Positions 12,371-39,565 of a stretch of 64,000 nucleotides of DNA are shown here, one piece after another. A program made the position numbers and the translations under genes. The stretch is from Candidatus Bathyarchaeia archaeon (GTDB taxonomy: Archaea > Thermoproteota > Bathyarchaeia > 40CM-2-53-6). The number at the start of each line of letters is the position of its first letter. Position 1 is the first letter of the stretch. Location: contig JBEKFP010000001.1 of the NCBI GenBank assembly GCA_050013255.1, forward strand, positions 1,120,001-1,184,000, written 5' to 3'. The notes under the pieces were generated by a model. That model saw only the letters and a program-made list of their open reading frames with translations, was not told where the DNA came from and did not search any database.

Positions 12371-12501
12371 GCGGCCGTAGTCTAGCCTGGTCTAGGACGG
12401 GAACAGCAACGGAAGTTTGCTGACGCAAGCCTGCCACGCTTCTGATCGCCCCTTAGTAAGGGCGAGAAGACGCCCGGGTTCAAATCCCGGCGGCCGCACC
12501 A
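12371..12501 (+). tRNA. tRNA-Gly(GCC) with two introns: 12403-12428 (29/30) and 12445-12471 (45/46)
   Basis: GCGGCCG acceptor; spliced anticodon arm GGAGC-CTGCCAC-GCTTC; BHB with CTTC/GAAG central helix; CCA encoded. Confidence 0.92.
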
Positions 12502-12712
12502 CAACCCTCGCACACAGACTAAAACGGCCTGGATCCGTTCTTGTCGTTAGGGGAAGTATCACATAACGACCCCTTTACTACAAGGCTTCCGCGCGCCATA
12601 ATTTTGCGCGCAAGCTGGCGAACTATGCGCAATTCTCCGTGCGACCCTCGCACTTCTAGGTATGCATGTGATTTGCGCGCGGTCCCTTGCGCTAATCCTT
12701 CGCGGATGCCAA

Positions 12713-12752
12713 GTTCAAATCCGGTCTCCCGTAACACTAAGAGCACGCACAA
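12713..12752 (+). repeat. Degenerate tRNA-3'-end plus CACAC-arm site (site H)
   Basis: GTTCAAAT-CCGGT-CTCCCGT-AACA-CTA-AGAGCACGCACAA; same register as sites A and G2. Confidence 0.6.
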
Positions 12753-12790
12753 AAGAGATTTAAAGCGAGGATGACCTGAGGAGTATCCGG

Positions 12791-31490: not shown

Positions 31491-31613
31491 GGGCTCGTAG
31501 CTCAGTCTGGATAGTGCTTGCAGGTTGAGCATCTAAAGCACAGGCCCTCTAAACGCTTTGTAAAAAGCGGGGGACGCCTGGGGTCCGGGGTTCGAATCCC
31601 CGCGGGCCCGCCA
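31491..31613 (+). tRNA. tRNA-Arg(TCT) with two introns: 31515-31536 (22/23) and 31553-31575 (38/39)
   Basis: BHB motifs GGAT/ATCT and CTCT/GGGG; spliced arm CAGGC-CCTCTAA-GCCTG; TTCGAAT T-loop; GCCA end. Confidence 0.9.
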
Positions 31614-31714
31614 CACCATCGGTTCCAGACCAACGTCTGGCAAATACCGGAAAAGCCGTTTCTAAGATTAACGTCAATTACGGATGAAAGCGCGCGTGCA
31701 CCGTAATTACAGGA

Positions 31715-31754
31715 GTTCAATTCTGATTGCCCGCACCATTAGACCCACACACAC
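31715..31754 (+). repeat. Site A (tRNA-end type, forward)
   Basis: GTTCAATT-CTGAT-TGCCCGC-ACCA-TTA-GACCCACACACAC. Confidence 0.9.
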
Positions 31755-31810
31755 TGTAATAGATTTGTGTAAATCTATCCCACTTAGTCTTCTTCTGGTG
31801 GAATTGCGCG

Positions 31811-32665
31811 ATGGAACGCCATCCCGACAATACCGCGTTTCGTGCCGCAATATTGCGCGCTGTCCACCAGCTCATCGATGAAGAACCAAAGATTCTCAAC
31901 GACCCTATCGTGCTTCGACTTCTCGACGCACCGACCCTTGACTATGTTCGCTTGAACCCGGATAAGTTCCGGACAGCTAGGATGAACGCGTTACGCTCGC
32001 ATGTAGTAGTGCGCAGCCGGTACACGGAGGACCGCTTGGCCGACGCGGTAGAGAATGGTGTTCAGCAATACCTGATATTGGGCGCTGGCCTCGACACGTT
32101 CCCATATCGACAACCTCATTGGGCGAGAGTATTGCGGATTTTCGAAGTAGATCAATCAACGAGCCAGTGTTCGAAGCGCGAACGGTTGGCCATGGCTGGG
32201 ATTGAGGTTCCGTCGAATGTCGAGCTAATCGCTTGTGATTTCGAGACCATTTCTCTCCGTGATTGTTTGCGCAGAAGCAGCTTCGATTTTGGGAAACCCG
32301 CGTTTCTTTCATGGCTCGGTGTGACGATGTATCTAAGCACGGACGCGATTGATGCAGTATTCAGGTTTGCAAGTTCGCTGCCAAAATCGAGTGAGATTGT
32401 CTTCACGTTTGCATCTCCGGCGTCTACAGTGAAGGAAATCGGACGTGAACCCTTGCTTGCCGCATTCACGGCATTCGCTGCAGCACACGGAGAACCATGG
32501 CGTACCTTTTTCGAGCCAGACGACTTGGCCCACAAATTGCAAGAGTTAGGTTTTTCGACCGTATCATTTCTTTCGGCTTCGGACGCTGATACACTATATT
32601 TCCGAGGTCGTCACGACGGTCTCAAGATACGGCAAAGAGTCGGAATTGTAACCGCTACGGTCTAA
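31811..32665 (+). CDS. SAM-dependent methyltransferase (leucine carboxyl methyltransferase-like)
   Basis: TA..AA..RA.H, R.RY.ED, ILGAGLDT, FEVD and WLGV.MYL. Confidence 0.9.
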   Translation: MERHPDNTAFRAAILRAVHQLIDEEPKILNDPIVLRLLDAPTLDYVRLNPDKFRTARMNALRSHVVVRSRYTEDRLADAVENGVQQYLILGAGLDTFPYRQPHWARVLRIFEVDQSTSQCSKRERLAMAGIEVPSNVELIACDFETISLRDCLRRSSFDFGKPAFLSWLGVTMYLSTDAIDAVFRFASSLPKSSEIVFTFASPASTVKEIGREPLLAAFTAFAAAHGEPWRTFFEPDDLAHKLQELGFSTVSFLSASDADTLYFRGRHDGLKIRQRVGIVTATV

Positions 32666-32683
32666 ACCTATCCACTCTCAGGA

Positions 32684-32766
32684 TGCGTGTGGCTCTAGCG
32701 GTGCGGACGACCAGAATTGAACCGTCGTTTTAGTGCGTGTGTGCGTACCACTAGACCCGCACGCAC
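32684..32766. repeat. Composite site B: reverse tRNA-end type (32684-32727) plus forward symmetric type (32735-32766)
   Basis: Reverse complement of B1 matches site A at 32/40; B2 is GCGTGTGTGCGTA-CCACTA-GACCCGCACGCAC. Confidence 0.85.
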
Positions 32767-32924
32767 AAATTTCTGGCAATTTGGTTCAGGGCTGATGCTT
32801 TATCGAGCTAAGGTCTCTTCTCAACCGGTTTAGTAATACCGGAGACTTCCGGGTCTATACAAAATAGAATCTATGAAGAATTAACGTATAATGATTCGGC
32901 GTGTTCCTAGCCGAACGATGAGCG

Positions 32925-33176
32925 ATGGGTTTCGATCCCACAACCGTAATGAACTTCGTCCTAACTATCATAATATTCGTCTTGGGCGTTGCGCTGTATG
33001 GCAGGAAGAAGAACGTCATGACTCTCTACATCGGCATAGCTTTCGGCCTTTTCGCTATCTCTCACCTGGCAACCTTGCTTGACCTTGCTGCCACTCTAAC
33101 AGTTCCGCTCATAGCAGTCCGGGCAATTGCGTACATTGTAGTCATCATTGCATTGCTCACGTTTTGGAAGAAGTGA
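32925..33176 (+). CDS. Small three-TM membrane protein
   Basis: Hydrophobic 83-aa ORF with FGLFAISH. Confidence 0.75.
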   Translation: MGFDPTTVMNFVLTIIIFVLGVALYGRKKNVMTLYIGIAFGLFAISHLATLLDLAATLTVPLIAVRAIAYIVVIIALLTFWKK

Positions 33177-33193
33177 AACTGGAAAGACTCTCG

Positions 33194-33267
33194 CTTTAGT
33201 GGTTCACCCACACAAAACGGTACGAACAACGATTCAAGTTACGTGGCTCGCACCATTAAACCGACAC
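33194..33267. repeat. Composite site C: degenerate reverse symmetric type (33194-33213) plus forward tRNA-end type (33231-33267)
   Basis: CTTTAGTGGTTCACCCACAC ... GATTCAAGT-TACGT-GGCTCGC-ACCA-TTA-AACCGACAC. Confidence 0.7.
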
Positions 33268-33331
33268 CTATGAAAAGTCTGTAGACTATGCTTTCGTCTC
33301 CGCGGATGGTCTTCTGCGTGGCGTTCAAGTG

Positions 33332-33363
33332 GTGTGTGTGCGCACCAGTAGACCCACACACAC
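33332..33363 (+). repeat. Site D (symmetric consensus site)
   Basis: GTGTGTGTGCGCA-CCAGTA-GACCCACACACAC. Confidence 0.92.
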
Positions 33364-33476
33364 AAACCGGCGTCGTTCATGTAATTTTGTGTGTATACAA
33401 ATTCCAAATTCCAACAGAACCGTAAAGTAAATTTGTGTGCGATCGTGATGCACTTTCGGAGTTGTGTGTTCGAGCA

Positions 33477-34115
33477 ATGGGGAATGAAGTACTGGATGCC
33501 ATTATGCAGCGACGCAGTATCTATCAGTTCAAGCCTGAGGCAGTCCCTACTGAGAAGATTACTTCCATTTTGGAGGCGGGTCGTTGGGCTCCGTCATATG
33601 CGAATAGTCAGCCATGGGAATTCATCACCGTAACTGATAGCAAATTGAAGCAGGAGGTTGTCGAGATAGCTAAGGAAACTATGGCTGCGCATGCAGGAAT
33701 AGAAGGAGCGCACACAATCATCGCAACATGTGTGGATCCCGAGAAAGATCAATATCACTTCATTGAAGACGGTGCTGTAGCAACACAGAACATGGCTCTG
33801 GCAGCACATAGCCTGGGGTTAGCGACCTATTGGGTCGGGATATTTAGTCTTATGAACGATAGGAAATCAGTCGAGCATAGAATCAAGGAGGTTCTGAACA
33901 TACCTGAAAAAATCCGCGTGATTTCTTTGTTGCCCATAGGTGTGCCTGCGTATAGTGTAGAGAAGCAAAGAAAGCGGTTGGAGGAGATTTGCCACGTTGA
34001 CAAGTATGGCAGCAGACAATCAGGTGTGGGAGTAGAGGATCAGGACAAGAAGACCGAGATAGAAGCACAGAGGCATGGCATGAGAGCGCATTTGCCCCGC
34101 GTCGCACCAACTTGA
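33477..34115 (+). CDS. Nitroreductase family protein
   Basis: RRSIY.F, APS..N.QPWEF and NM.LAA.SLGL. Confidence 0.9.
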   Translation: MGNEVLDAIMQRRSIYQFKPEAVPTEKITSILEAGRWAPSYANSQPWEFITVTDSKLKQEVVEIAKETMAAHAGIEGAHTIIATCVDPEKDQYHFIEDGAVATQNMALAAHSLGLATYWVGIFSLMNDRKSVEHRIKEVLNIPEKIRVISLLPIGVPAYSVEKQRKRLEEICHVDKYGSRQSGVGVEDQDKKTEIEAQRHGMRAHLPRVAPT

Positions 34116-34137
34116 TTGATTGGATCATGAGCCAACG

Positions 34138-34163
34138 TCAGGAGTGGCGGGCACACACACAAA
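34138..34163 (-). repeat. Site E (degenerate reverse symmetric type)
   Basis: AGTGGCGGGCACACACAC resembles the reverse consensus ANTGGTGCGCACACACAC. Confidence 0.6.
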
Positions 34164-34778
34164 TCAGCGTTTTCGCGCTACAACGGAAAATACGTGCCAA
34201 TGCTTCCTTCGTTCATGAAGTGCTGGCCTGTCATCTTTCTCCTGTTCGAGAAAGAATTCGATCTCAAATGGACGCAGTAGTGCCTTAACTTGCTTAGCGG
34301 TATGAAATGTCCCATTTGAACTGCGAGCCCAATCATCGTGAACGCCGAAGAAATGGCCTGAAAGCCTTCCTCCAGTACGAATCGAGGTTACGATCTTTCG
34401 CCAGAAAGAATGGAACCGTTTCGGTGAGCAAAACGGTAGGCTGTAACTTGCATTTACAAGATCACATCTGGGTAAGGATGATCTCTCGAATGAAGTCACA
34501 CGGGTTCTTAGTTGCTCTCTATGCGTTGGGGATACGTTAGATCGGATCCATCTAATCGCTCCAGCCTCACTGTCTACAGCCAGCACTTTCCAGCCTCGTC
34601 GCAGCAACTCTGACGTATCCCGACCACCTCCACATCCCAAATCAATCGCAAAACGCATCTTCTTTCGTGACGGTTCAGCGTCAAACGAAGAAAGTGCTTT
34701 TTGCAGGGTTTCGTAAGGAGGACGCTTTGAAGTCGCTTTGTAATAATCAAGCCAACGTGGTTCTCTGCGTTTGGACAT
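34164..34778 (-). CDS. Class I SAM-dependent methyltransferase (TehB-like)
   Basis: AIDLGCGGGRD, SLPFC and KHWHVFSVVARK; start trimmed to MSKRR. Confidence 0.88.
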   Translation of the reverse strand: MSKRREPRWLDYYKATSKRPPYETLQKALSSFDAEPSRKKMRFAIDLGCGGGRDTSELLRRGWKVLAVDSEAGAIRWIRSNVSPTHREQLRTRVTSFERSSLPRCDLVNASYSLPFCSPKRFHSFWRKIVTSIRTGGRLSGHFFGVHDDWARSSNGTFHTAKQVKALLRPFEIEFFLEQEKDDRPALHERRKHWHVFSVVARKR

Positions 34779-34966
34779 AGAAGCAAAGTACAGCGGTTCT
34801 CGCTGATAACTATCGCCTAGATCCTCAGCTCTACAGTTGTAGAAGATACTTCCACTAACAGGTGGGGATCGTAAGCTGACTCTCGGTAGTAGTCGTAACG
34901 ACACTAGTCAACGACGCCTCCCATCCCCTATTTCATCGGTTCTTCTCCTTTCGGAAATTAGACAGC

Positions 34967-35191
34967 GTGCTTAAAACGCAACACGCTGACGCAATGATTA
35001 TGGTTCTAACCAGTTACGAGTGGGTTGCCGTTCTCATAATCATCGTGGTTATTGCTCTGGCGTATTTGTTCTGGCGCTCCTTTTCGCGCAGAATGGAAGG
35101 TACACAAAGACCACAGACGACCACTGGTGCAGGATGGAACAGTCGCATACGGAGTAATCAGACGCAAGACATCAAATCGAAAATCAGCTGA
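34967..35191 (+). CDS. Small single-TM protein
   Basis: One TM followed by a basic tail. Confidence 0.4.
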   Translation: MLKTQHADAMIMVLTSYEWVAVLIIIVVIALAYLFWRSFSRRMEGTQRPQTTTGAGWNSRIRSNQTQDIKSKIS

Positions 35192-35271
35192 CACATAGAT
35201 GCAAAGTTGACGACTGATAGCAGCTTTCACGGCAACCTGAAACAATGATTCACCTGTTTATGCGATTCTAG

Positions 35272-35583
35272 TTGGCCCAAGTACTTTATACCAACCAGCC
35301 CAATGAGGCTGTGATTGTGATGACGACAGGTTTTCATGAGTTCGACAACAGAATCCATGACTTGGCTGAACGGGAAAATGAGTGTGACGGCCTGTTCGAA
35401 GAAATTAAGAATGGCAACGGCGACAAATCACTGCGCTATCTTGCACTGAGAGATTCCTGCAAAGAGTTGAGAAACAAAATTTTCAGGAGCGCTAGGTCAG
35501 CGGGACTAACGCGGGAAAGAATCAAGACGGAGATCAAGGAAGCAAGAAACCAGACGACCGCCACTAACGCGAAACACACTTAG
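35272..35583 (+). CDS. Hypothetical helical protein
   Basis: 103-aa ORF with protein-like composition; start may be at MTTG. Confidence 0.5.
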   Translation: MAQVLYTNQPNEAVIVMTTGFHEFDNRIHDLAERENECDGLFEEIKNGNGDKSLRYLALRDSCKELRNKIFRSARSAGLTRERIKTEIKEARNQTTATNAKHT

Positions 35584-35668
35584 GAAGAATCGATAGAATC
35601 ACCCAGATTTTTTGCGGAACTGGTTCAAGAGCTGAAATAGGCCCCCGGTCGTCAGTCGGTCACTTCAT

Positions 35669-35700
35669 GTGTGTGTGCGCACGACCAGACGCACACAAAC
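35669..35700 (+). repeat. Site F (symmetric type, forward)
   Basis: GTGTGTGTGCGCA-CGACCA-GACGCACACAAAC. Confidence 0.85.
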
Positions 35701-35741
35701 TTTCTGTCAGTCGAACCAACTACGGCATACACGCGATAATA

Positions 35742-36185
35742 TCATTCGACGGTGAAGAGTTCGTGGTCAGGCATTCGATGAAGGGCAAGTGCGATTTCTT
35801 GAACCTCGCGTTGAGGCGAACTTGCGGAGACTCGAGAGAGTAGGGCGGCGGTTTTCTCGGTGGGGCCAATTAGGATGACGCGGTTGCCCTTTCGAAATCT
35901 TACTTTGATGCGTTGAGACTCTTTTACTATGATATTTCCCTTGCCTAAAGTGCAGCCACTGGATACCTGAATACCATCTAGCATGCAGGATTCCGGTGGC
36001 GATTTCCTGGTCCAAACTGTCGCAGATAACTCATGAAGTCGCTTAGGCTTCAACCTTTGAATGGCTATCACGCCCATCCGAAGACCAAATACTAGGTACG
36101 GACCTAGGTGACCATGAAAATCCACGCCCTCCTTCAGCAGACGCTGGCGGCCTGAGGCTCGTTTCTTTGTCACGGTGGTGCCCAC
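35742..36185 (-). CDS. FmdE/FwdE family protein
   Basis: FHGHLGP...G.RMG; C..DGIQ..SGCT.GKGN. Confidence 0.9.
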   Translation of the reverse strand: MGTTVTKKRASGRQRLLKEGVDFHGHLGPYLVFGLRMGVIAIQRLKPKRLHELSATVWTRKSPPESCMLDGIQVSSGCTLGKGNIIVKESQRIKVRFRKGNRVILIGPTEKTAALLSRVSASSPQREVQEIALALHRMPDHELFTVE

Positions 36186-36661
36186 TTGCGCAAGAGAAGA
36201 TCCCCAAGATGAAAACGCCTAGTGAGAATATCAACAACAGCAGCGCAAATCACATTCTCAACAGTCAAGAGAGCCAGAATAGTCTGCACAGCCACAGCTG
36301 GAACATGAAGAACTAATGTATCAACGAGATAAATCCACGGAGCCTGAATCAAGACCCACGCAACCAAACCTGCCAATACGGGTCGGAGCTTGCGGGAAAA
36401 GACCGCAATGAACAACCCCAAGAGCCCGTTTCCGACCACGATCGTCGGGTCTGACCTAATCATAGCCACATATGACCCTCCAACTAAGCCCGTGATGAGT
36501 CCGGATAGAGGACCACCCGCAACTCCAGCCAACATTATGCCTGTTTGAAAAAAGTGGATTCCCGTTCCGAACAGGAATGGTACCATTAAAAGACTAAGCA
36601 CAACTGTCACCGCACTAATCCCAGCCGTGAACGCCACAAGCCTGCTGTTCATCGATTGCAA
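36170..36661 (-). CDS. ECF transporter S-component-like membrane protein
   Basis: Multi-TM with G...GP..G.I.G..GG pattern. Confidence 0.75.
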   Translation of the reverse strand: MQSMNSRLVAFTAGISAVTVVLSLLMVPFLFGTGIHFFQTGIMLAGVAGGPLSGLITGLVGGSYVAMIRSDPTIVVGNGLLGLFIAVFSRKLRPVLAGLVAWVLIQAPWIYLVDTLVLHVPAVAVQTILALLTVENVICAAVVDILTRRFHLGDLLLRKWAPP

Positions 36662-36662
36662 A

Positions 36663-36690
36663 GTATTACCGTTTCACCGAATCGTAATAA
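36663..36690. promoter_or_regulatory. Putative NikR operator
   Basis: GTATTA-N16-TAATAA inverted repeat between divergent nikR and ECF-S genes; same N16 spacing as the E. coli NikR operator. Confidence 0.6.
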
Positions 36691-36739
36691 TGATATTAAA
36701 AAGTACTGACCAATTCCAAGATGTTGGAGATAACCCGCC

Positions 36740-37147
36740 TTGGTTAGGGTAGAAAGGATTAGTTTCTCAACGCCGCCGGCACTACTAGAGCAATTTGACG
36801 ATTCCCTCAGAACACTCGGGTACAAGGATCGGTCGACGGCCCTGCAGATCGCAATGAGGAACTTCATCACAGAATACTCTTGGAGAAAGGAAGCAGGAAC
36901 ACCCGGAGCAGGAACGATCTTGCTGACTTACAACCATGAATCACATGGTCTTCAAGAAGCCTTGACGGACATCCAACATCAATTCCGCGACATCGTGAAC
37001 TCAACTACTCACATTCATCTTGACGAAACTCGGTGTCTGGAGATAATATCCGTCAAGGGGAGAATGGAGCGCATTCAAGCATTGGCAAAGAACATCATGA
37101 AGACACGTGGGGTAACGCAGCTCAGGCTATCAACCGTTGCTGTCTAG
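36740..37147 (+). CDS. nikR: Nickel-responsive regulator NikR
   Basis: RISFS RHH, GY.DRS, YNH, QH and HIHL...CLE. Confidence 0.92.
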   Translation: MVRVERISFSTPPALLEQFDDSLRTLGYKDRSTALQIAMRNFITEYSWRKEAGTPGAGTILLTYNHESHGLQEALTDIQHQFRDIVNSTTHIHLDETRCLEIISVKGRMERIQALAKNIMKTRGVTQLRLSTVAV

Positions 37148-37154
37148 AGAGTAA

Positions 37155-37300
37155 GTGTGCGGTACTATTAATGCAGGGAGGCAAATTTGAACCGTCGTCG
37201 GTAGAGTAATTTTCTGTGTGTGTGGGTCTAATGGTGCGGGCAACGTAATTTGAACCGTCGTCGTTCGTCGTTAGAAAGTGTGTGTGCGCAACAATAGACG
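37155..37300. repeat. Site cluster G: two reverse tRNA-end sites (37155-37200, 37216-37260) plus a truncated forward symmetric site (37278-37300)
   Basis: AATTTGAACCGTCGTCG occurs twice; G2 reverse complement is GACGGTTCAAAT-TACGT-TGCCCGC-ACCA-TTA-GACCCACACACAC. Confidence 0.9.
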
Positions 37301-37306
37301 AGCTAT

Positions 37307-37936
37307 TCATTCCTTTGTTGTTTTCTTCTCTGAGACCCGCCTCACCGAAGATAGGACTAGCGGGGCAAACCAGAGGTAGAATCTCAAGGGGGTACTCAGT
37401 ATGGTCCAGCTCCAAAAGATGGGTGCTATTGTTAGGGCGAAAAGGCCCGCCGAAAAGAACAAGATGGTCCTGATTCGCCTATACTTGGCGAGTAGGTTTT
37501 GTGGGAGAAGTTTTCTGTCCTCAATGGTCAATTGATGGGTGAATAGTGCGAGTATCGCCATTAACCCTGCCATGTCAAGGGCGTAGGCTATTGAAGCGGC
37601 GTCTAGGAGGGCGGGATGGCCCGAAAAGTCGAAGACGACGTTCAAGTAAAATAGGTATGGCTCGATAGACACGAGAAAGAGCATGACGATGTTTAGTATG
37701 ACTGTGGTCATTTCCTCTAAAGGAAGAACAGACATGATGCTGGTGTAGCTCACCCACACTGAGATGAGAATTAGGAAGCTAAATCCGAATTCCACGACAT
37801 CGAAGAGTATGCCACCTGGGGTCTTAGGTAGCTTGATTATTAGGGAAATTGTTGCCACCGACAAGGCGAGTCCGAAAATCAAATCCGACAGGGACTCAAT
37901 CCGTGGCCTAGGATGTCTAGCAGTTTCCAACGCCAA
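37307..37936 (-). CDS. TMEM175-family potassium channel
   Basis: RIESLSDLIFG (RxxxFSD-like) motif; 6 TM. Confidence 0.82.
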   Translation of the reverse strand: MALETARHPRPRIESLSDLIFGLALSVATISLIIKLPKTPGGILFDVVEFGFSFLILISVWVSYTSIMSVLPLEEMTTVILNIVMLFLVSIEPYLFYLNVVFDFSGHPALLDAASIAYALDMAGLMAILALFTHQLTIEDRKLLPQNLLAKYRRIRTILFFSAGLFALTIAPIFWSWTILSTPLRFYLWFAPLVLSSVRRVSEKKTTKE

Positions 37937-38029
37937 TCACTCTACCCCCACTTACAGCGCTATAGATTCAAAAAGGCGTGGGTGGCAGTCCTCAAGCGAG
38001 GTCGGCCTAACCTAAGAGGAAGGAATTGG

Positions 38030-38239
38030 ATGACTCCAAGTGAGCGTGAGTTGCTTCAAGGTATGGTCAACTGCTATCACACTTGCCATGCTGACTTCGA
38101 AGATACGGTGGGTATGGTTGGTTCTGCTCGCGGGCTAAGCCCGGAAGAGGTTAAGGAAATCCTAACACGGCTCAGGGAAACAGGCGGCACCGAGTATAAG
38201 GAACTTAGAAGCCGTTTGCCTGATACCTTCCCTCTCTGA
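38030..38239 (+). CDS. Small hypothetical protein (69 aa)
   Basis: MTPSERELLQGM.NCY..C...; GAGGAAGGA upstream; first gene of a three-gene unit. Confidence 0.65.
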   Translation: MTPSERELLQGMVNCYHTCHADFEDTVGMVGSARGLSPEEVKEILTRLRETGGTEYKELRSRLPDTFPL

Positions 38240-38262
38240 ATACGTGAATGTGAGGCCCTAGT

Positions 38263-39162
38263 ATGACTAAATGTGCCGTCTGCGGAACGACCTTTCAAGC
38301 CGGGGATTACGATAGCCTCGCCCATCATTTCTATGAGTCGGCGGAAAGAAGCGACCCTGGTCACGTAATGTGGCTCAACAAGAACATCACAAGGAAAAAG
38401 ACGGATGCGTCCGAGCTCTCAAAACAGCTTCGAGTCTACCTCGACTTCCGGGCGATCGGAACAAAGGGATGGATGAAGAAGAGATTCATCGAGCGGTTCT
38501 ATGGAGAGAAACCGCACCCCTTCGTACTTGTCCTACAGCACCCATCCAAAGCAACTCTGTTAGGCTATGTGGTCGAACACCAGCATTTCCTACGGCAATG
38601 GACACGCAGCTGCGCATACATTATCGCGAAAACGGACAAAGTGGACGTTACGCTCTACGAATTGGACAACATCAATACAGAGTTCGGCGGAAACGGGCCC
38701 GACAAACCCTCACACTACGAACTGCTCATACGAATGGGCGAAAGCCTCGGTTTGCCTAGAGACAAGATCCTCGGGACGGATCCGCTATCCGACACTGCAT
38801 CGGCGACCAGGACATGGAACGAGATTGCTGAGAAGGAGCATTGGTTGGAGACGATGGCCGCGATGCATCCATTGGAGCTGATAGCTAACCGCAACCTGAG
38901 GGGGGAAGGAGCGAAGATGAGCTACTTTGACCGGTCAATACTGAGCGGAAACGAGGTCACGGACGCCACGAAGAACTTCCTTAGAGAGGGCTACGAGGCT
39001 GATGTTGAACATTCCGAAGAAGCCATGGACTTGATTGAGAAATATTCTGGCGACTTGGGTACAGCTGAGAACGTTCAGGCCACATTCCTTAGGTCGATTG
39101 ACGCATTTGACCGGTATTTGATGGCTCGCTTAGAAAGGGCGAAACAGTTTGAAAGTTCCTAA
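38263..39162 (+). CDS. Zinc finger fused to a heme-oxygenase-like (TenA/PqqC/CADD) domain
   Basis: CAVC...H...H N-terminus; N..E...HYEL, E and D..H metal-ligand pattern. Confidence 0.75.
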   Translation: MTKCAVCGTTFQAGDYDSLAHHFYESAERSDPGHVMWLNKNITRKKTDASELSKQLRVYLDFRAIGTKGWMKKRFIERFYGEKPHPFVLVLQHPSKATLLGYVVEHQHFLRQWTRSCAYIIAKTDKVDVTLYELDNINTEFGGNGPDKPSHYELLIRMGESLGLPRDKILGTDPLSDTASATRTWNEIAEKEHWLETMAAMHPLELIANRNLRGEGAKMSYFDRSILSGNEVTDATKNFLREGYEADVEHSEEAMDLIEKYSGDLGTAENVQATFLRSIDAFDRYLMARLERAKQFESS

Positions 39163-39433
39163 GGGCTGCGCCATCTGCGAATCGACTTGGGGCAACCACT
39201 GGGCCGAAGTGGAAGGACAGAAAATGTTCTTCTGCTGTGAGATATGTGAGGTCGAATTCCGAAACATGATTGAAGAAGTCAAACGTAGAACGGGTTGGAA
39301 GACGATCGACGAGGTCAGAATAACAGGAGACCAGAAAGGTAGGGAATGCACAGCCCGATTGGGGCTTCAAGCCTTTCGCTATTTCATTCGATTCAGTTCA
39401 CAAGGGGCAATCGATACTTTCAGAGAAATATGA
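39149..39433 (+). CDS. TA0938-family Cys-rich protein
   Basis: GCAICESTWG.....V.G..MFFCCEIC. Confidence 0.75.
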   Translation: MKVPKGCAICESTWGNHWAEVEGQKMFFCCEICEVEFRNMIEEVKRRTGWKTIDEVRITGDQKGRECTARLGLQAFRYFIRFSSQGAIDTFREI

Positions 39434-39565
39434 GTTCTCACTAGGTGGCGCGTCTCGCCGAACAAAAGCCCGTAAGCATGATTATATTTTGCACTAATTC
39501 CCCACCCACGGAGAGCCCACTAACAAATATCTGGGAACCTTTCGAGTCATCGGAGGCGGGGGCGT

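Follow-up and report, generated by a model that had tools for sequence, protein, structure and literature searches.

The question raised by this locus is how, in an archaeon from peat, a series of small accessory genes came to adjoin the gene for tRNA-Val, with copies of one short sequence recurring between them. A first-pass annotation read the region as a cassette array shuffled by a trans-acting recombinase. Our analysis of the window (the complete stretch of 64,000 nucleotides) indicates that the insertion adjoining tRNA-Val, at positions 31611-37300, is probably a stack of five small casposon-type units without Cas1. The repeated sites are most likely insertion scars of a CRISPR-related Cas1 transposase rather than recombinase sites.

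All 11 sites listed in the first-pass annotation are present in the places and orientations given there, always between open reading frames. The left arm is indeed exact in sites D, F and G3, the right arm in A, D and G2, and the spacers read as listed. As a 32-bp palindrome of 13-6-13 bp, however, only D and F can be recognized at three mismatches or fewer, and the sites are better described as mosaics of three parts: an end tip, a 14-bp block (T) and, in some sites, a leader. A CA run marks the left end of a unit and a GT run the right end. Block T consists of CGCACCA, which corresponds to the final seven nucleotides of a tRNA-like 3' end including CCA, followed by seven variable bases; the near-invariance of positions 1-7 is inflated, since the sites were gathered by their likeness to the consensus. 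The leader, directly upstream of T, resembles a tRNA 3' region with its T-loop, and in it TTCAAAT ends 9 nt before T. The core CGCACCAnTAGACCCACAC has seven matches in the window at up to three mismatches, against 0.08 expected, and no shuffle reached seven. Genome-wide, as the annotation had proposed to scan, 59 matches at the same threshold cluster in about a dozen islands.

Six copies of T lie on the plus strand (A, B2, C2, D, F and G3) and are laid out as leader-(14-mer-unit)x5-14-mer; those on the minus strand are B1, C1, E, G1 and G2 (Table 1). In A and C2 a tRNA-like left flank replaces the GT arm, E is a half-site, and C1 and G1 are degenerate copies. Most unit ends bear a CA or GT tip of 7-10 nt; the right-end tip is absent in unit 2 and in the nitroreductase segment. 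Only unit 5 has inverted repeats that extend beyond the tips, over about 34 nt (score 24; shuffles averaged 13.9 and reached 22 at most).

Table 1. Layout of the array beside tRNA-Val, in positions of the window.
Feature	Position	Strand	Description
tRNA-Val(GAC) with intron	31491-31610	+	Rfam tRNA, 38.7 bits; ARAGORN, introns allowed
Adapter	31611-31711	+	About 100 nt from tRNA-Val to leader A; counted within the insertion
Site A, backbone start	31712-31754	+	Leader GGAGTTCAATTCTGATTGCC
Site A, 14-mer T	31732-31745		CGCACCATTAGACC; CA tip at 31746-31754
Unit 1	31746-32743	+	LCM-type methyltransferase gene 31811-32665 (Pfam LCM, E=7e-45)
Unit 1, internal inverted site B1			Reversed T at 32692-32705, between tip' (32685-32691) and reversed leader (32706-32727)
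Unit 1, right-end GT tip	32733-32743
Backbone 14-mer B2	32744-32757	+	CGTACCACTAGACC
Unit 2	32758-33248	+	Small membrane protein gene 32925-33176
Unit 2, interior			Reversed 14-mer C1 33193-33206; 33207-33248, in order: CA tip, roughly 12 nt, leader C2
Backbone 14-mer C2	33249-33262	+	CGCACCATTAAACC
Unit 3	33263-33340	+	78 bp, non-coding; left end, CACACCTATGAAAAGTCT element family; right end, GT tip
Backbone 14-mer D	33341-33354	+	CGCACCAGTAGACC
Unit 4a	33355-34144	+	Starts with CA tip; nitroreductase gene 33435-34115 (Pfam, E=9e-29)
Unit 4b	34145-35677	+	Reversed half 14-mer E (TGGCGGG, 34145-34151), then CA tip
Unit 4b, genes			SAM methyltransferase 34164-34904 (minus); small ORFs 34967-35191 and 35272-35583
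Unit 4b, right-end GT tip	35669-35677
Backbone 14-mer F	35678-35691	+	CGCACGACCAGACG
Unit 5	35692-37286	+	Three genes (Pfam)
Unit 5, genes			FmdE-like 35742-36185 (minus); ECF-S-like 36170-36661 (minus); NikR 36740-37147 (plus)
Unit 5, nested reversed tip-14-mer-leader modules			G1 37155-37200; G2 37216-37265
Last backbone 14-mer G3	37287-37300	+	CGCAACAATAGACG

Comparison with related genomes shows that the array is an insertion. The tRNA-Val gene is its conserved left neighbour, syntenic with LeuRS in relatives; to the right the native flank restarts at about 37301-37305, followed by a TMEM175-like gene (37307-37936, minus strand). Checking presence and absence, as had been suggested, revealed that four relatives (G004, G014, G018 and G013) lack the array at this locus, and in G004 the CCA end of tRNA-Val is fused directly to the counterpart of position 37305. 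No recognisable duplication is seen at the junction between tRNA-Val and the array. The adapter and leader A occur together a second time in the genome, 3' of a different tRNA (contig C1:855463-855583).

Single cargo units recur at other loci in other species with 93-96% identity, against 71-78% for the flanks, and the boundaries of the recurring units fall at the tips. A copy of unit 1 (84% identical) lies in G004:C18 downstream of another tRNA and site. Unit 2 has copies in G014:C2 (93%), ending after CGCACCA, and in G004:C15 (91%), ending at the junction of reversed T and tip. The nitroreductase unit (4a) is found in G011:C3 (93%), where a leader and a different 14-mer precede it, its start coincides exactly with the tip and its end with the equivalent of 34144; a peat contig diverges at 34144 too. 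Positions 34147-35256 of unit 4b recur in G004:C14 (96%) with the same half 14-mer and tip. The element family of unit 3 has at least five near-identical longer copies in G003, each immediately 3' of a 14-mer. Consequently, the proposal of a shuffled cassette array holds as far as it concerns mobile cargo, absent at the locus in relatives and with units in other contexts; what changes is the enzyme, most likely a casposase instead of a tyrosine recombinase.

The absence of the whole array from relatives also bears on the idea that the sites are REP/BIME-like or regulatory hairpins (terminators or operators) without any part in gene movement. In its favour, the sites fall between genes, are palindromic in part and in several cases closely follow a stop codon. 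Against this, the genome (100% complete by marker genes) contains no RAYT-type Y1 transposase (PF01797), the transposase that moves REP repeats, the sites are concentrated in islands rather than spread over operons, and they have no Rfam match. Neither a fixed distance from site to promoter or terminator genome-wide nor, in relatives, a gene order maintained across the sites was seen. This explanation appears extremely improbable.

Any enzyme must act in trans, as the first-pass annotation had it, because the array holds no recombinase. For the annotation this enzyme was a tyrosine recombinase (XerA or an integrase), with GT arm, spacer and CA arm as its dif/lox-type core site and crossovers in the spacer shuffling or inverting the cassettes as in the pdif modules of Acinetobacter. 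The host has a XerA-like gene at contig C3:131115-132083, but XerA is expected everywhere and its distribution is therefore uninformative. The orientation of the sites mostly alternates and inverted sites bracket the cargo, as in dif modules (PMC6449649 for comparison); cargo between converging sites is systematic genome-wide (14 cases, each 0.45-1.8 kb). Moreover, two homology breakpoints fall after CGCACCA, within the 14-mer and not at its edge, which places them inside the proposed 6-bp spacer and leaves the idea a small foothold.

Still, the anatomy of the sites fits a recombinase poorly. The asymmetric centre is 14 bp long instead of 6-8 bp and behaves as a target-site duplication, the arms are complementary only over the outer 9 of their 13 bases (the inner four are not), and a leader takes the place of the left arm in 55 of 100 sites classified genome-wide. 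Several units have the same variable half on either side, and this half is particular to each array, as expected of a duplication; a Cas1 element without any CA/GT arms likewise lies between copies of the 14-mer. The distribution of the enzymes points the same way. No match to PF00589 is found in or near the array, and no motif island contains an integrase. The motif is present in 8/9 genomes of genus g1 and 6/6 of g14, and in none of the 19 genomes of g12 and g13. The tRNA-linked integrase family of this genome occurs in the motif-free g12 (8/16 genomes) and in only 1-2 of 6 genomes of g14, where all have the motif; casposase homologues, within the taxonomic family of these genera, are found in g1 and g14 only. 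Hence it is the casposase, and not the integrase that was sought, which tracks the motif across genera, even though several motif-rich genomes, such as G016 (16 sites in 3 contigs), have no Cas1 match. Overall we regard a tyrosine recombinase as very unlikely.

A whole-genome profile search (PF01867) finds just two Cas1 genes, at contig C3:231350-232066 and contig C1:1333795-1334496, and none within 31611-37300 or near the array; the units are therefore at most non-autonomous relatives of casposons. The structure search, which covered one of the two proteins, gave a full-length match to the Methanosarcina mazei casposase 6OPM (E=4e-74); CRISPR Cas1 structures matched at E=6e-24 at best. Both Cas1 elements have a perfect direct duplication of a 14-mer behind a leader. 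At contig C1:1330259 and 1346556 both copies read CGCACCATTAGACC and the element ends in CA-run inverted repeats; at contig C3:228065 and 239044 both copies read CGCACCAGCATACC and the ends are GC-rich, not CA-run. These GC-rich ends imply that the CA/GT arms are part of the elements rather than of the site.

Perfect duplications are not confined to the elements with Cas1. Rare-variant 14-mers are perfectly duplicated around Cas1-less units of 1.6-2.4 kb (contig C1:257873/259490, contig C2:285240/287247 and contig C1:1352968/1355397), and perfect outer duplications surround composite segments whose internal sites point in both directions (contig C1:37900/42250, 679354/682802 and 1355397/1357163). 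Adjacent 14-mers on the same strand have an identical variable half in 5/16 pairs, compared with 3.6% of unlinked pairs, and in 4/5 of these identical neighbours the variant is a rare one. The leader is equally regular: TTCAAWT ends exactly 9 nt before T in 39/40 leaders with the exact heptamer, which puts TCAAATT at -15 to -9 (15 further leader-class sites, many of them weak matches, do not have the exact heptamer). The casposase of Aciduliprofundum boonei requires TCAAATC at -15 to -9 together with positions +1 and +2; the duplicated block can lose its distal part, and of the element end no more than the 5 terminal nt are needed (PMC6614799).

Taken in this way, a casposase encoded elsewhere in the genome would recognise the leader and the start of T, and would join to that point any DNA whose 3' tips are suitable, duplicating T. 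Repeated use of one leader would then yield leader-(T-unit)n-T, with the six plus-strand copies as its backbone, and the stack may have grown from the leader end. It would be this casposase that moved these particular units. The five inverted sites and the cargo bracketed by converging sites form a pattern that a simple one-step insertion does not produce. Minus-strand copies inside units might be relics of earlier insertions that were carried along, or landing sites in unit ends; such nesting would explain the inverted sites only in part.

It might also be argued that the units are not mobile themselves and that the array is what erosion has left of a few full casposons or other integrated elements, in which segments were shuffled, inverted and deleted through ordinary homologous recombination between repeats of 30-50 bp (leader, CGCACCA and tips) and through horizontal transfer. 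The window indeed has no perfect duplications: no two of its 14-mers are identical, the backbone copies being 1 to 4 bases off A and agreeing at 10-13 of 14 positions, compared with the perfect 14-bp duplications elsewhere in the genome. Tips are all that most units have in common, breakpoints lie at the edge of the conserved CGCACCA, inverted sites are common, and the array is identical in Logan contigs from four peat/wetland runs (2017-2020). On the other hand, erosion does not readily account for the small Cas1-less units with perfect rare-variant duplications, for the nitroreductase unit that starts at its tip behind another leader in another species, or for the element copies that each follow a 14-mer in G003. 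We consider such an eroded remnant rather unlikely, and casposon-type insertion the better account.

Family 2 casposons (A. boonei AciBoo-C1 and M. mazei MetMaz, PDB 6OPM) are the closest known systems. Likenesses include the C-terminal extension of the genome's Cas1, with 6OPM as best match, the tRNA-like 3' end as target and a leader with TCAAAT at -15 to -9. In M. mazei the duplications are 14 bp long with an invariant CGCA start and a variable centre, and tandem casposons have one shared duplication between them (PMC4779613); both features recur in this genome, though in the window with imperfect copies. Differences are pronounced as well. The window units lack Cas1, measure 0.08-1.6 kb, carry three or four ordinary cargo genes at most, and mostly have only 7-10-nt tips in common; the ORF list gives no ORF among them of the size of a polymerase, such as the family B DNA polymerase of self-synthesising elements. 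Five units are stacked behind a portable copy of the leader instead of the tRNA gene itself, and they hold internal copies of the landing site in either orientation. In the literature searched, no description of Cas1-less casposon units or of such stacks was found.

Other systems agree in part. A CRISPR array likewise consists of a leader followed by (repeat-insert)n, with the repeat as the duplicated target of a Cas1-family integrase and a leader motif that sets the insertion point. Here, however, the inserts are gene-sized with end tips of their own, half of the 14-bp repeat varies, Cas2 and signs of processing are absent, and growth at the leader end is a deduction. Acinetobacter pdif modules are small accessory-gene modules bracketed by short inverse sites, which neighbours share, and do not encode their enzyme; pdif sites are 11-6-11 XerC/XerD sites (e.g. 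PMC6449649, PMC13141974), in contrast to an asymmetric 14-bp duplication with complementary arms of 9 nt, many one-armed sites and a Cas1 homologue as associated enzyme. Integrons, including those in Archaea (bioRxiv 10.1101/2022.02.06.479319), array single-gene cassettes, promoter-bearing or promoterless, at one platform. That the locus is not an integron, as already stated in the annotation, is borne out: no integrase gene adjoins the array, attC-type folded sites were not found, sites occur in both orientations, and the cassettes have end tips. The one attI-related Rfam match, inside the NikR gene, is at chance level (E=5.1; 18 bits, where the gathering score is 56). Tn7-like pile-ups at attTn7 and MITEs resemble the array in that an island arises from repeated site-specific transposition into a single landing site and that short non-autonomous derivatives are amplified (here unit 3 and the tip-leader modules), but they use another enzyme family, and in the array it is the target duplication that becomes the next landing site.

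A wider reading, which we hold tentatively and slightly short of an even chance, is that the casposase serves as a gene-capture enzyme in these peat archaea. It would stack short Cas1-less cargo behind portable tRNA-like leaders, need little beyond GTGTG-3' tips, and re-use each duplicated 14-mer as the next landing site. If so, the product would be a naturally occurring leader-(repeat-insert)n array, functionally placed between casposon, integron and CRISPR array, which exchanges single genes between species.

All eleven repeated sites of the array (A, B1, B2, C1, C2, D, E, F, G1, G2 and G3) agree with the first-pass annotation in position, orientation, exact arms and spacers, and every one falls between open reading frames, as had been claimed. 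The description of the sites as a 32-bp palindrome with a 13-6-13 layout holds for D and F at up to three mismatches; no other site fits it. At up to three mismatches, the window contains seven copies of the conserved core CGCACCAnTAGACCCACAC, against 0.08 expected. The sites are heterogeneous mosaics, of which the building blocks were derived from an alignment of all 59 genomic core copies, consensus sequences and nhmmer. In the genomic core copies the target block (T) is a 14-mer consisting of CGCACCA and seven variable bases; the near-invariance of CGCACCA is to be read with the fact that sites were gathered by likeness to the consensus. Element ends, or tips, adjoin T as a CA run on its 3' side or a GT run on its 5' side, and a leader reading ..ACGACGGTTCAAATTnnnnnGCC can stand immediately 5' of it. 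The palindrome thus parses as GT tip, T and CA tip, and site A as leader, T and CA tip. Of the 40 leaders with an exact TTCAAWT heptamer, 39 have it ending exactly 9 nt 5' of T; it is missing from a further 15 leader-class sites, of which many are weak matches.

Judged by sequence, the leader together with CGCACCA looks like the T-loop, acceptor end and CCA of a tRNA. A genuine tRNA-Gln (window 12371-12501) has a 3' end with the T-loop of the leader and ...CCGCACCA, and tRNA was the sole match in Rfam. ARAGORN reports no tRNA in the window at default settings; the tRNAs carry introns, and allowing introns leads to over-calling. In the intron-bearing tRNA-Gln(CTG) region (window 12371-12760), CAACCCT and a CA-type tip come after CCGCACCA, and some 200 nt farther along lie a second leader-like block, the 14-mer CGTAACACTAAGAG and a tip. 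The same system may have a natural anchor in this region.

Which enzyme acts on such sites was considered from the gene content of the genomes. REP/BIME-like repeats would call for a RAYT, and no Y1 transposase or RAYT was found in the genome under study (G000). A trans-acting recombinase, to be sought as a tyrosine recombinase that co-occurs with the motif, had been proposed to shuffle the cassettes; no repeat island in G000 holds an integrase. The tRNA-linked integrase family does not track the motif: it is common in genus g12, where the motif is absent, and rare in genus g14, where all genomes carry it. Casposase homologues, within the family, are found only in two motif-bearing genera, g1 and g14. 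Both distributions are descriptive only, as related genomes are not independent samples, and in some motif-rich genomes no Cas1 was found.

G000 itself has two Cas1 genes, both within repeat islands. One of the two proteins was compared with solved structures; it aligns end to end with the M. mazei casposase 6OPM (E=4e-74), whereas no CRISPR Cas1 does better than E=6e-24. Each Cas1 element is flanked by two identical T copies, yet the end types of the two elements differ (see the table). T is therefore read as a duplicated target, and the CA/GT arms as a property of particular elements rather than of the site. Genome-wide, the variable half of T is identical in 5 of 16 neighbouring same-strand pairs, compared with 3.6% of unlinked pairs. 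Perfect outer duplications, made up of rare variants, also bracket several composite segments inside which T copies lie in mixed orientation.

Some further observations concern these and similar elements. In the C3 element, a gene for a TIR-domain protein (TIR_2, E=3e-19; L019:2546-3310) starts one base past the Cas1 stop. Elements sharing the left end CACACCTATGAAAAGTCT form a family present in at least five near-identical copies in another genome, G003 (L024-L028), each directly 3' of a 14-mer, and one G003 copy lies behind a GC-rich end resembling that of the C3 element; the copies in G000 (C1:197651 and C1:633269) have only about 330 nt in common. Finally, the rare 14-mer CGCACCACCATACC occurs at G000 C1:716091 and C1:770468, 54 kb apart, beside the ends of two inverted-repeat families (GGGGATATTACATA; ...GGCGGCGGGGGCGG). 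Either a very large composite or coincidence could account for this pair.

Positions of the target blocks, Cas1 elements and cargo copies
Feature	Position	Copy elsewhere	Identity	Flank identity	Remarks
Plus-strand T, site A	31732
Plus-strand T, site B2	32744
Plus-strand T, site C2	33249
Plus-strand T, site D	33341
Plus-strand T, site F	35678
Plus-strand T, site G3	37287
Cas1 element, 16 kb	G000 C1:1330273-1346555				CA-run inverted repeats at ends; identical CGCACCATTAGACC on both flanks, behind leader
Cas1 element, 11 kb	G000 C3:228079-239043				GC-rich inverted repeats; identical CGCACCAGCATACC flanks, behind leader
Nitroreductase		G011:C3	93%	71%
Cargo segment	34147-35256	G004:C14	96%	78%
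Membrane protein		G014:C2	93%	93%
Membrane protein		G004:C15	91%	78%
LCM methyltransferase		G004:C18	84%	78%	again behind tRNA and site

The gene names assigned in the first pass to the array (LCM-type methyltransferase, small membrane protein, nitroreductase, SAM methyltransferase, FmdE-like protein and NikR) are sustained; so are ECF-S and TMEM175, both weakly. Each of the six plus-strand T copies has proper neighbours, with a leader or GT tip at the left and a tip or native flank at the right. Consequently, the layout can be written as leader A-(T-unit)x5-T. Compared with A, the T copies differ by 2 (B2), 1 (C2), 1 (D), 4 (F) and 3 (G3) bases, the two distal copies being the most divergent, though this trend is small; no perfect T duplication is present in the window. 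All minus-strand copies lie inside units. B1, G1 and G2 belong to reversed tip-spacer-leader modules at the right ends of units, and in unit 5 such a reversed module forms the right arm of a 34-nt inverted repeat. Such modules point to nesting of some units, with landing sites contained in the units' own ends. Many genomes carry several copies of the tip-leader modules, which are found behind T in either orientation. In units 1-4 no inverted repeats longer than the tips were found. Leaders A and B1, considered as the inverted-repeat pair of one element, are unremarkable (16/24 identical, rank 281 of 820 leader pairs). Bracketing of cargo by converging T copies is systematic, with 14 cases genome-wide, a pattern that the casposon reading leaves unexplained.

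A 394-bp multi-copy segment (window 35198-35591) was rejected as a mobile unit: its ends are without tips or 14-mers, and it amounts to a small gene plus promoter, namely a 103-aa ORF without Pfam match and conserved upstream sequence. There are three copies in G000, including C2:298751-299143 (95%) and C1:1242903-1243264 (90%), and copies of 80-91% identity occur in many genomes of the genus.

Between species, the cargo of the window is 93-96% identical against only 71-78% for the leucyl-tRNA synthetase region. The nitroreductase copy in G011 starts exactly at the CA tip, and both the leader and the T in front of it are different; a membrane-unit copy (G004:C15) ends where a reversed T meets a tip. 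Two copy boundaries fall inside T, after CGCACCA, and are not explained by the reading of the units as Cas1-less casposon-type insertions, which we nonetheless regard as probable.

Metagenomic runs containing the stretch come from peat and wetland. In the Logan contigs of four of them (X1, X3, X10 and X20) every array junction is covered and unchanged. The joints listed have sides of 24-35 nt and are other repeat copies rather than deletions or inversions; these contigs, which cannot reveal rare variants, give no usable joint. In three of the four runs, the peat contigs at window 33472-33892 that show 7-12 differences from the nitroreductase unit exceed the array in depth, and one contig departs from the window sequence exactly at 34144. 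The unit is therefore also present in a second setting within these communities.

Within the genus the locus is syntenic on both sides: LeuRS and tRNA-Val to the left, and to the right the stretch from the TMEM175-like gene on. In G004 the CCA end of tRNA-Val is joined directly to window 37305, and the array is also absent from G014 (flanks 93% identical), G018 and G013. A duplication at the tRNA-Val junction was rejected: the 14 nt past the acceptor end match neither the G004 nor the G014 empty site, and the right end has no second copy. The adapter between tRNA-Val and leader A (31611-31711), together with the leader (about 120 nt; window 31611-31731 and G000 C1:855463-855583), follows two different tRNA genes; the relatives lack it behind their tRNA-Val. 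The closest relative, G014 (G014:C1, L009), differs at the locus in a second respect: here tRNA-Val and the TMEM175-like gene are followed by a coxM/S/L-like carbon-monoxide-dehydrogenase-type cluster that replaces window 37940-39547 and is without sites.

Casposons are thought to be ancestral to the CRISPR adaptation machinery. To our knowledge, the casposons on record are large, encode Cas1 themselves, usually together with a polymerase, and occur singly or in pairs. The A. boonei casposase requires TCAAATC at leader positions -15 to -9 plus the two bases that open the duplicated block (PMC6614799). The duplications produced by M. mazei casposons are 14 bp long, invariably begin with CGCA and vary in the centre; these elements can also stand in tandem with one shared duplication between them (PMC4779613). 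All these target features are present in G000, a close match. Previous work covers casposons as such, their targets and tandem pairs; for Cas1-less units of one to a few cargo genes, stacked behind portable leaders, no description was found in the literature searched. Leader A with its 14-mer and the GTGTG tips offer a concrete substrate set for biochemistry. If true, such a population of Cas1-less units, stacked behind a leader with copies of the duplicated target in between, would show in living form how single transposon insertion passes into array growth at a leader, and would add a way of exchanging single genes, not described before, among Bathyarchaeia-type soil archaea.
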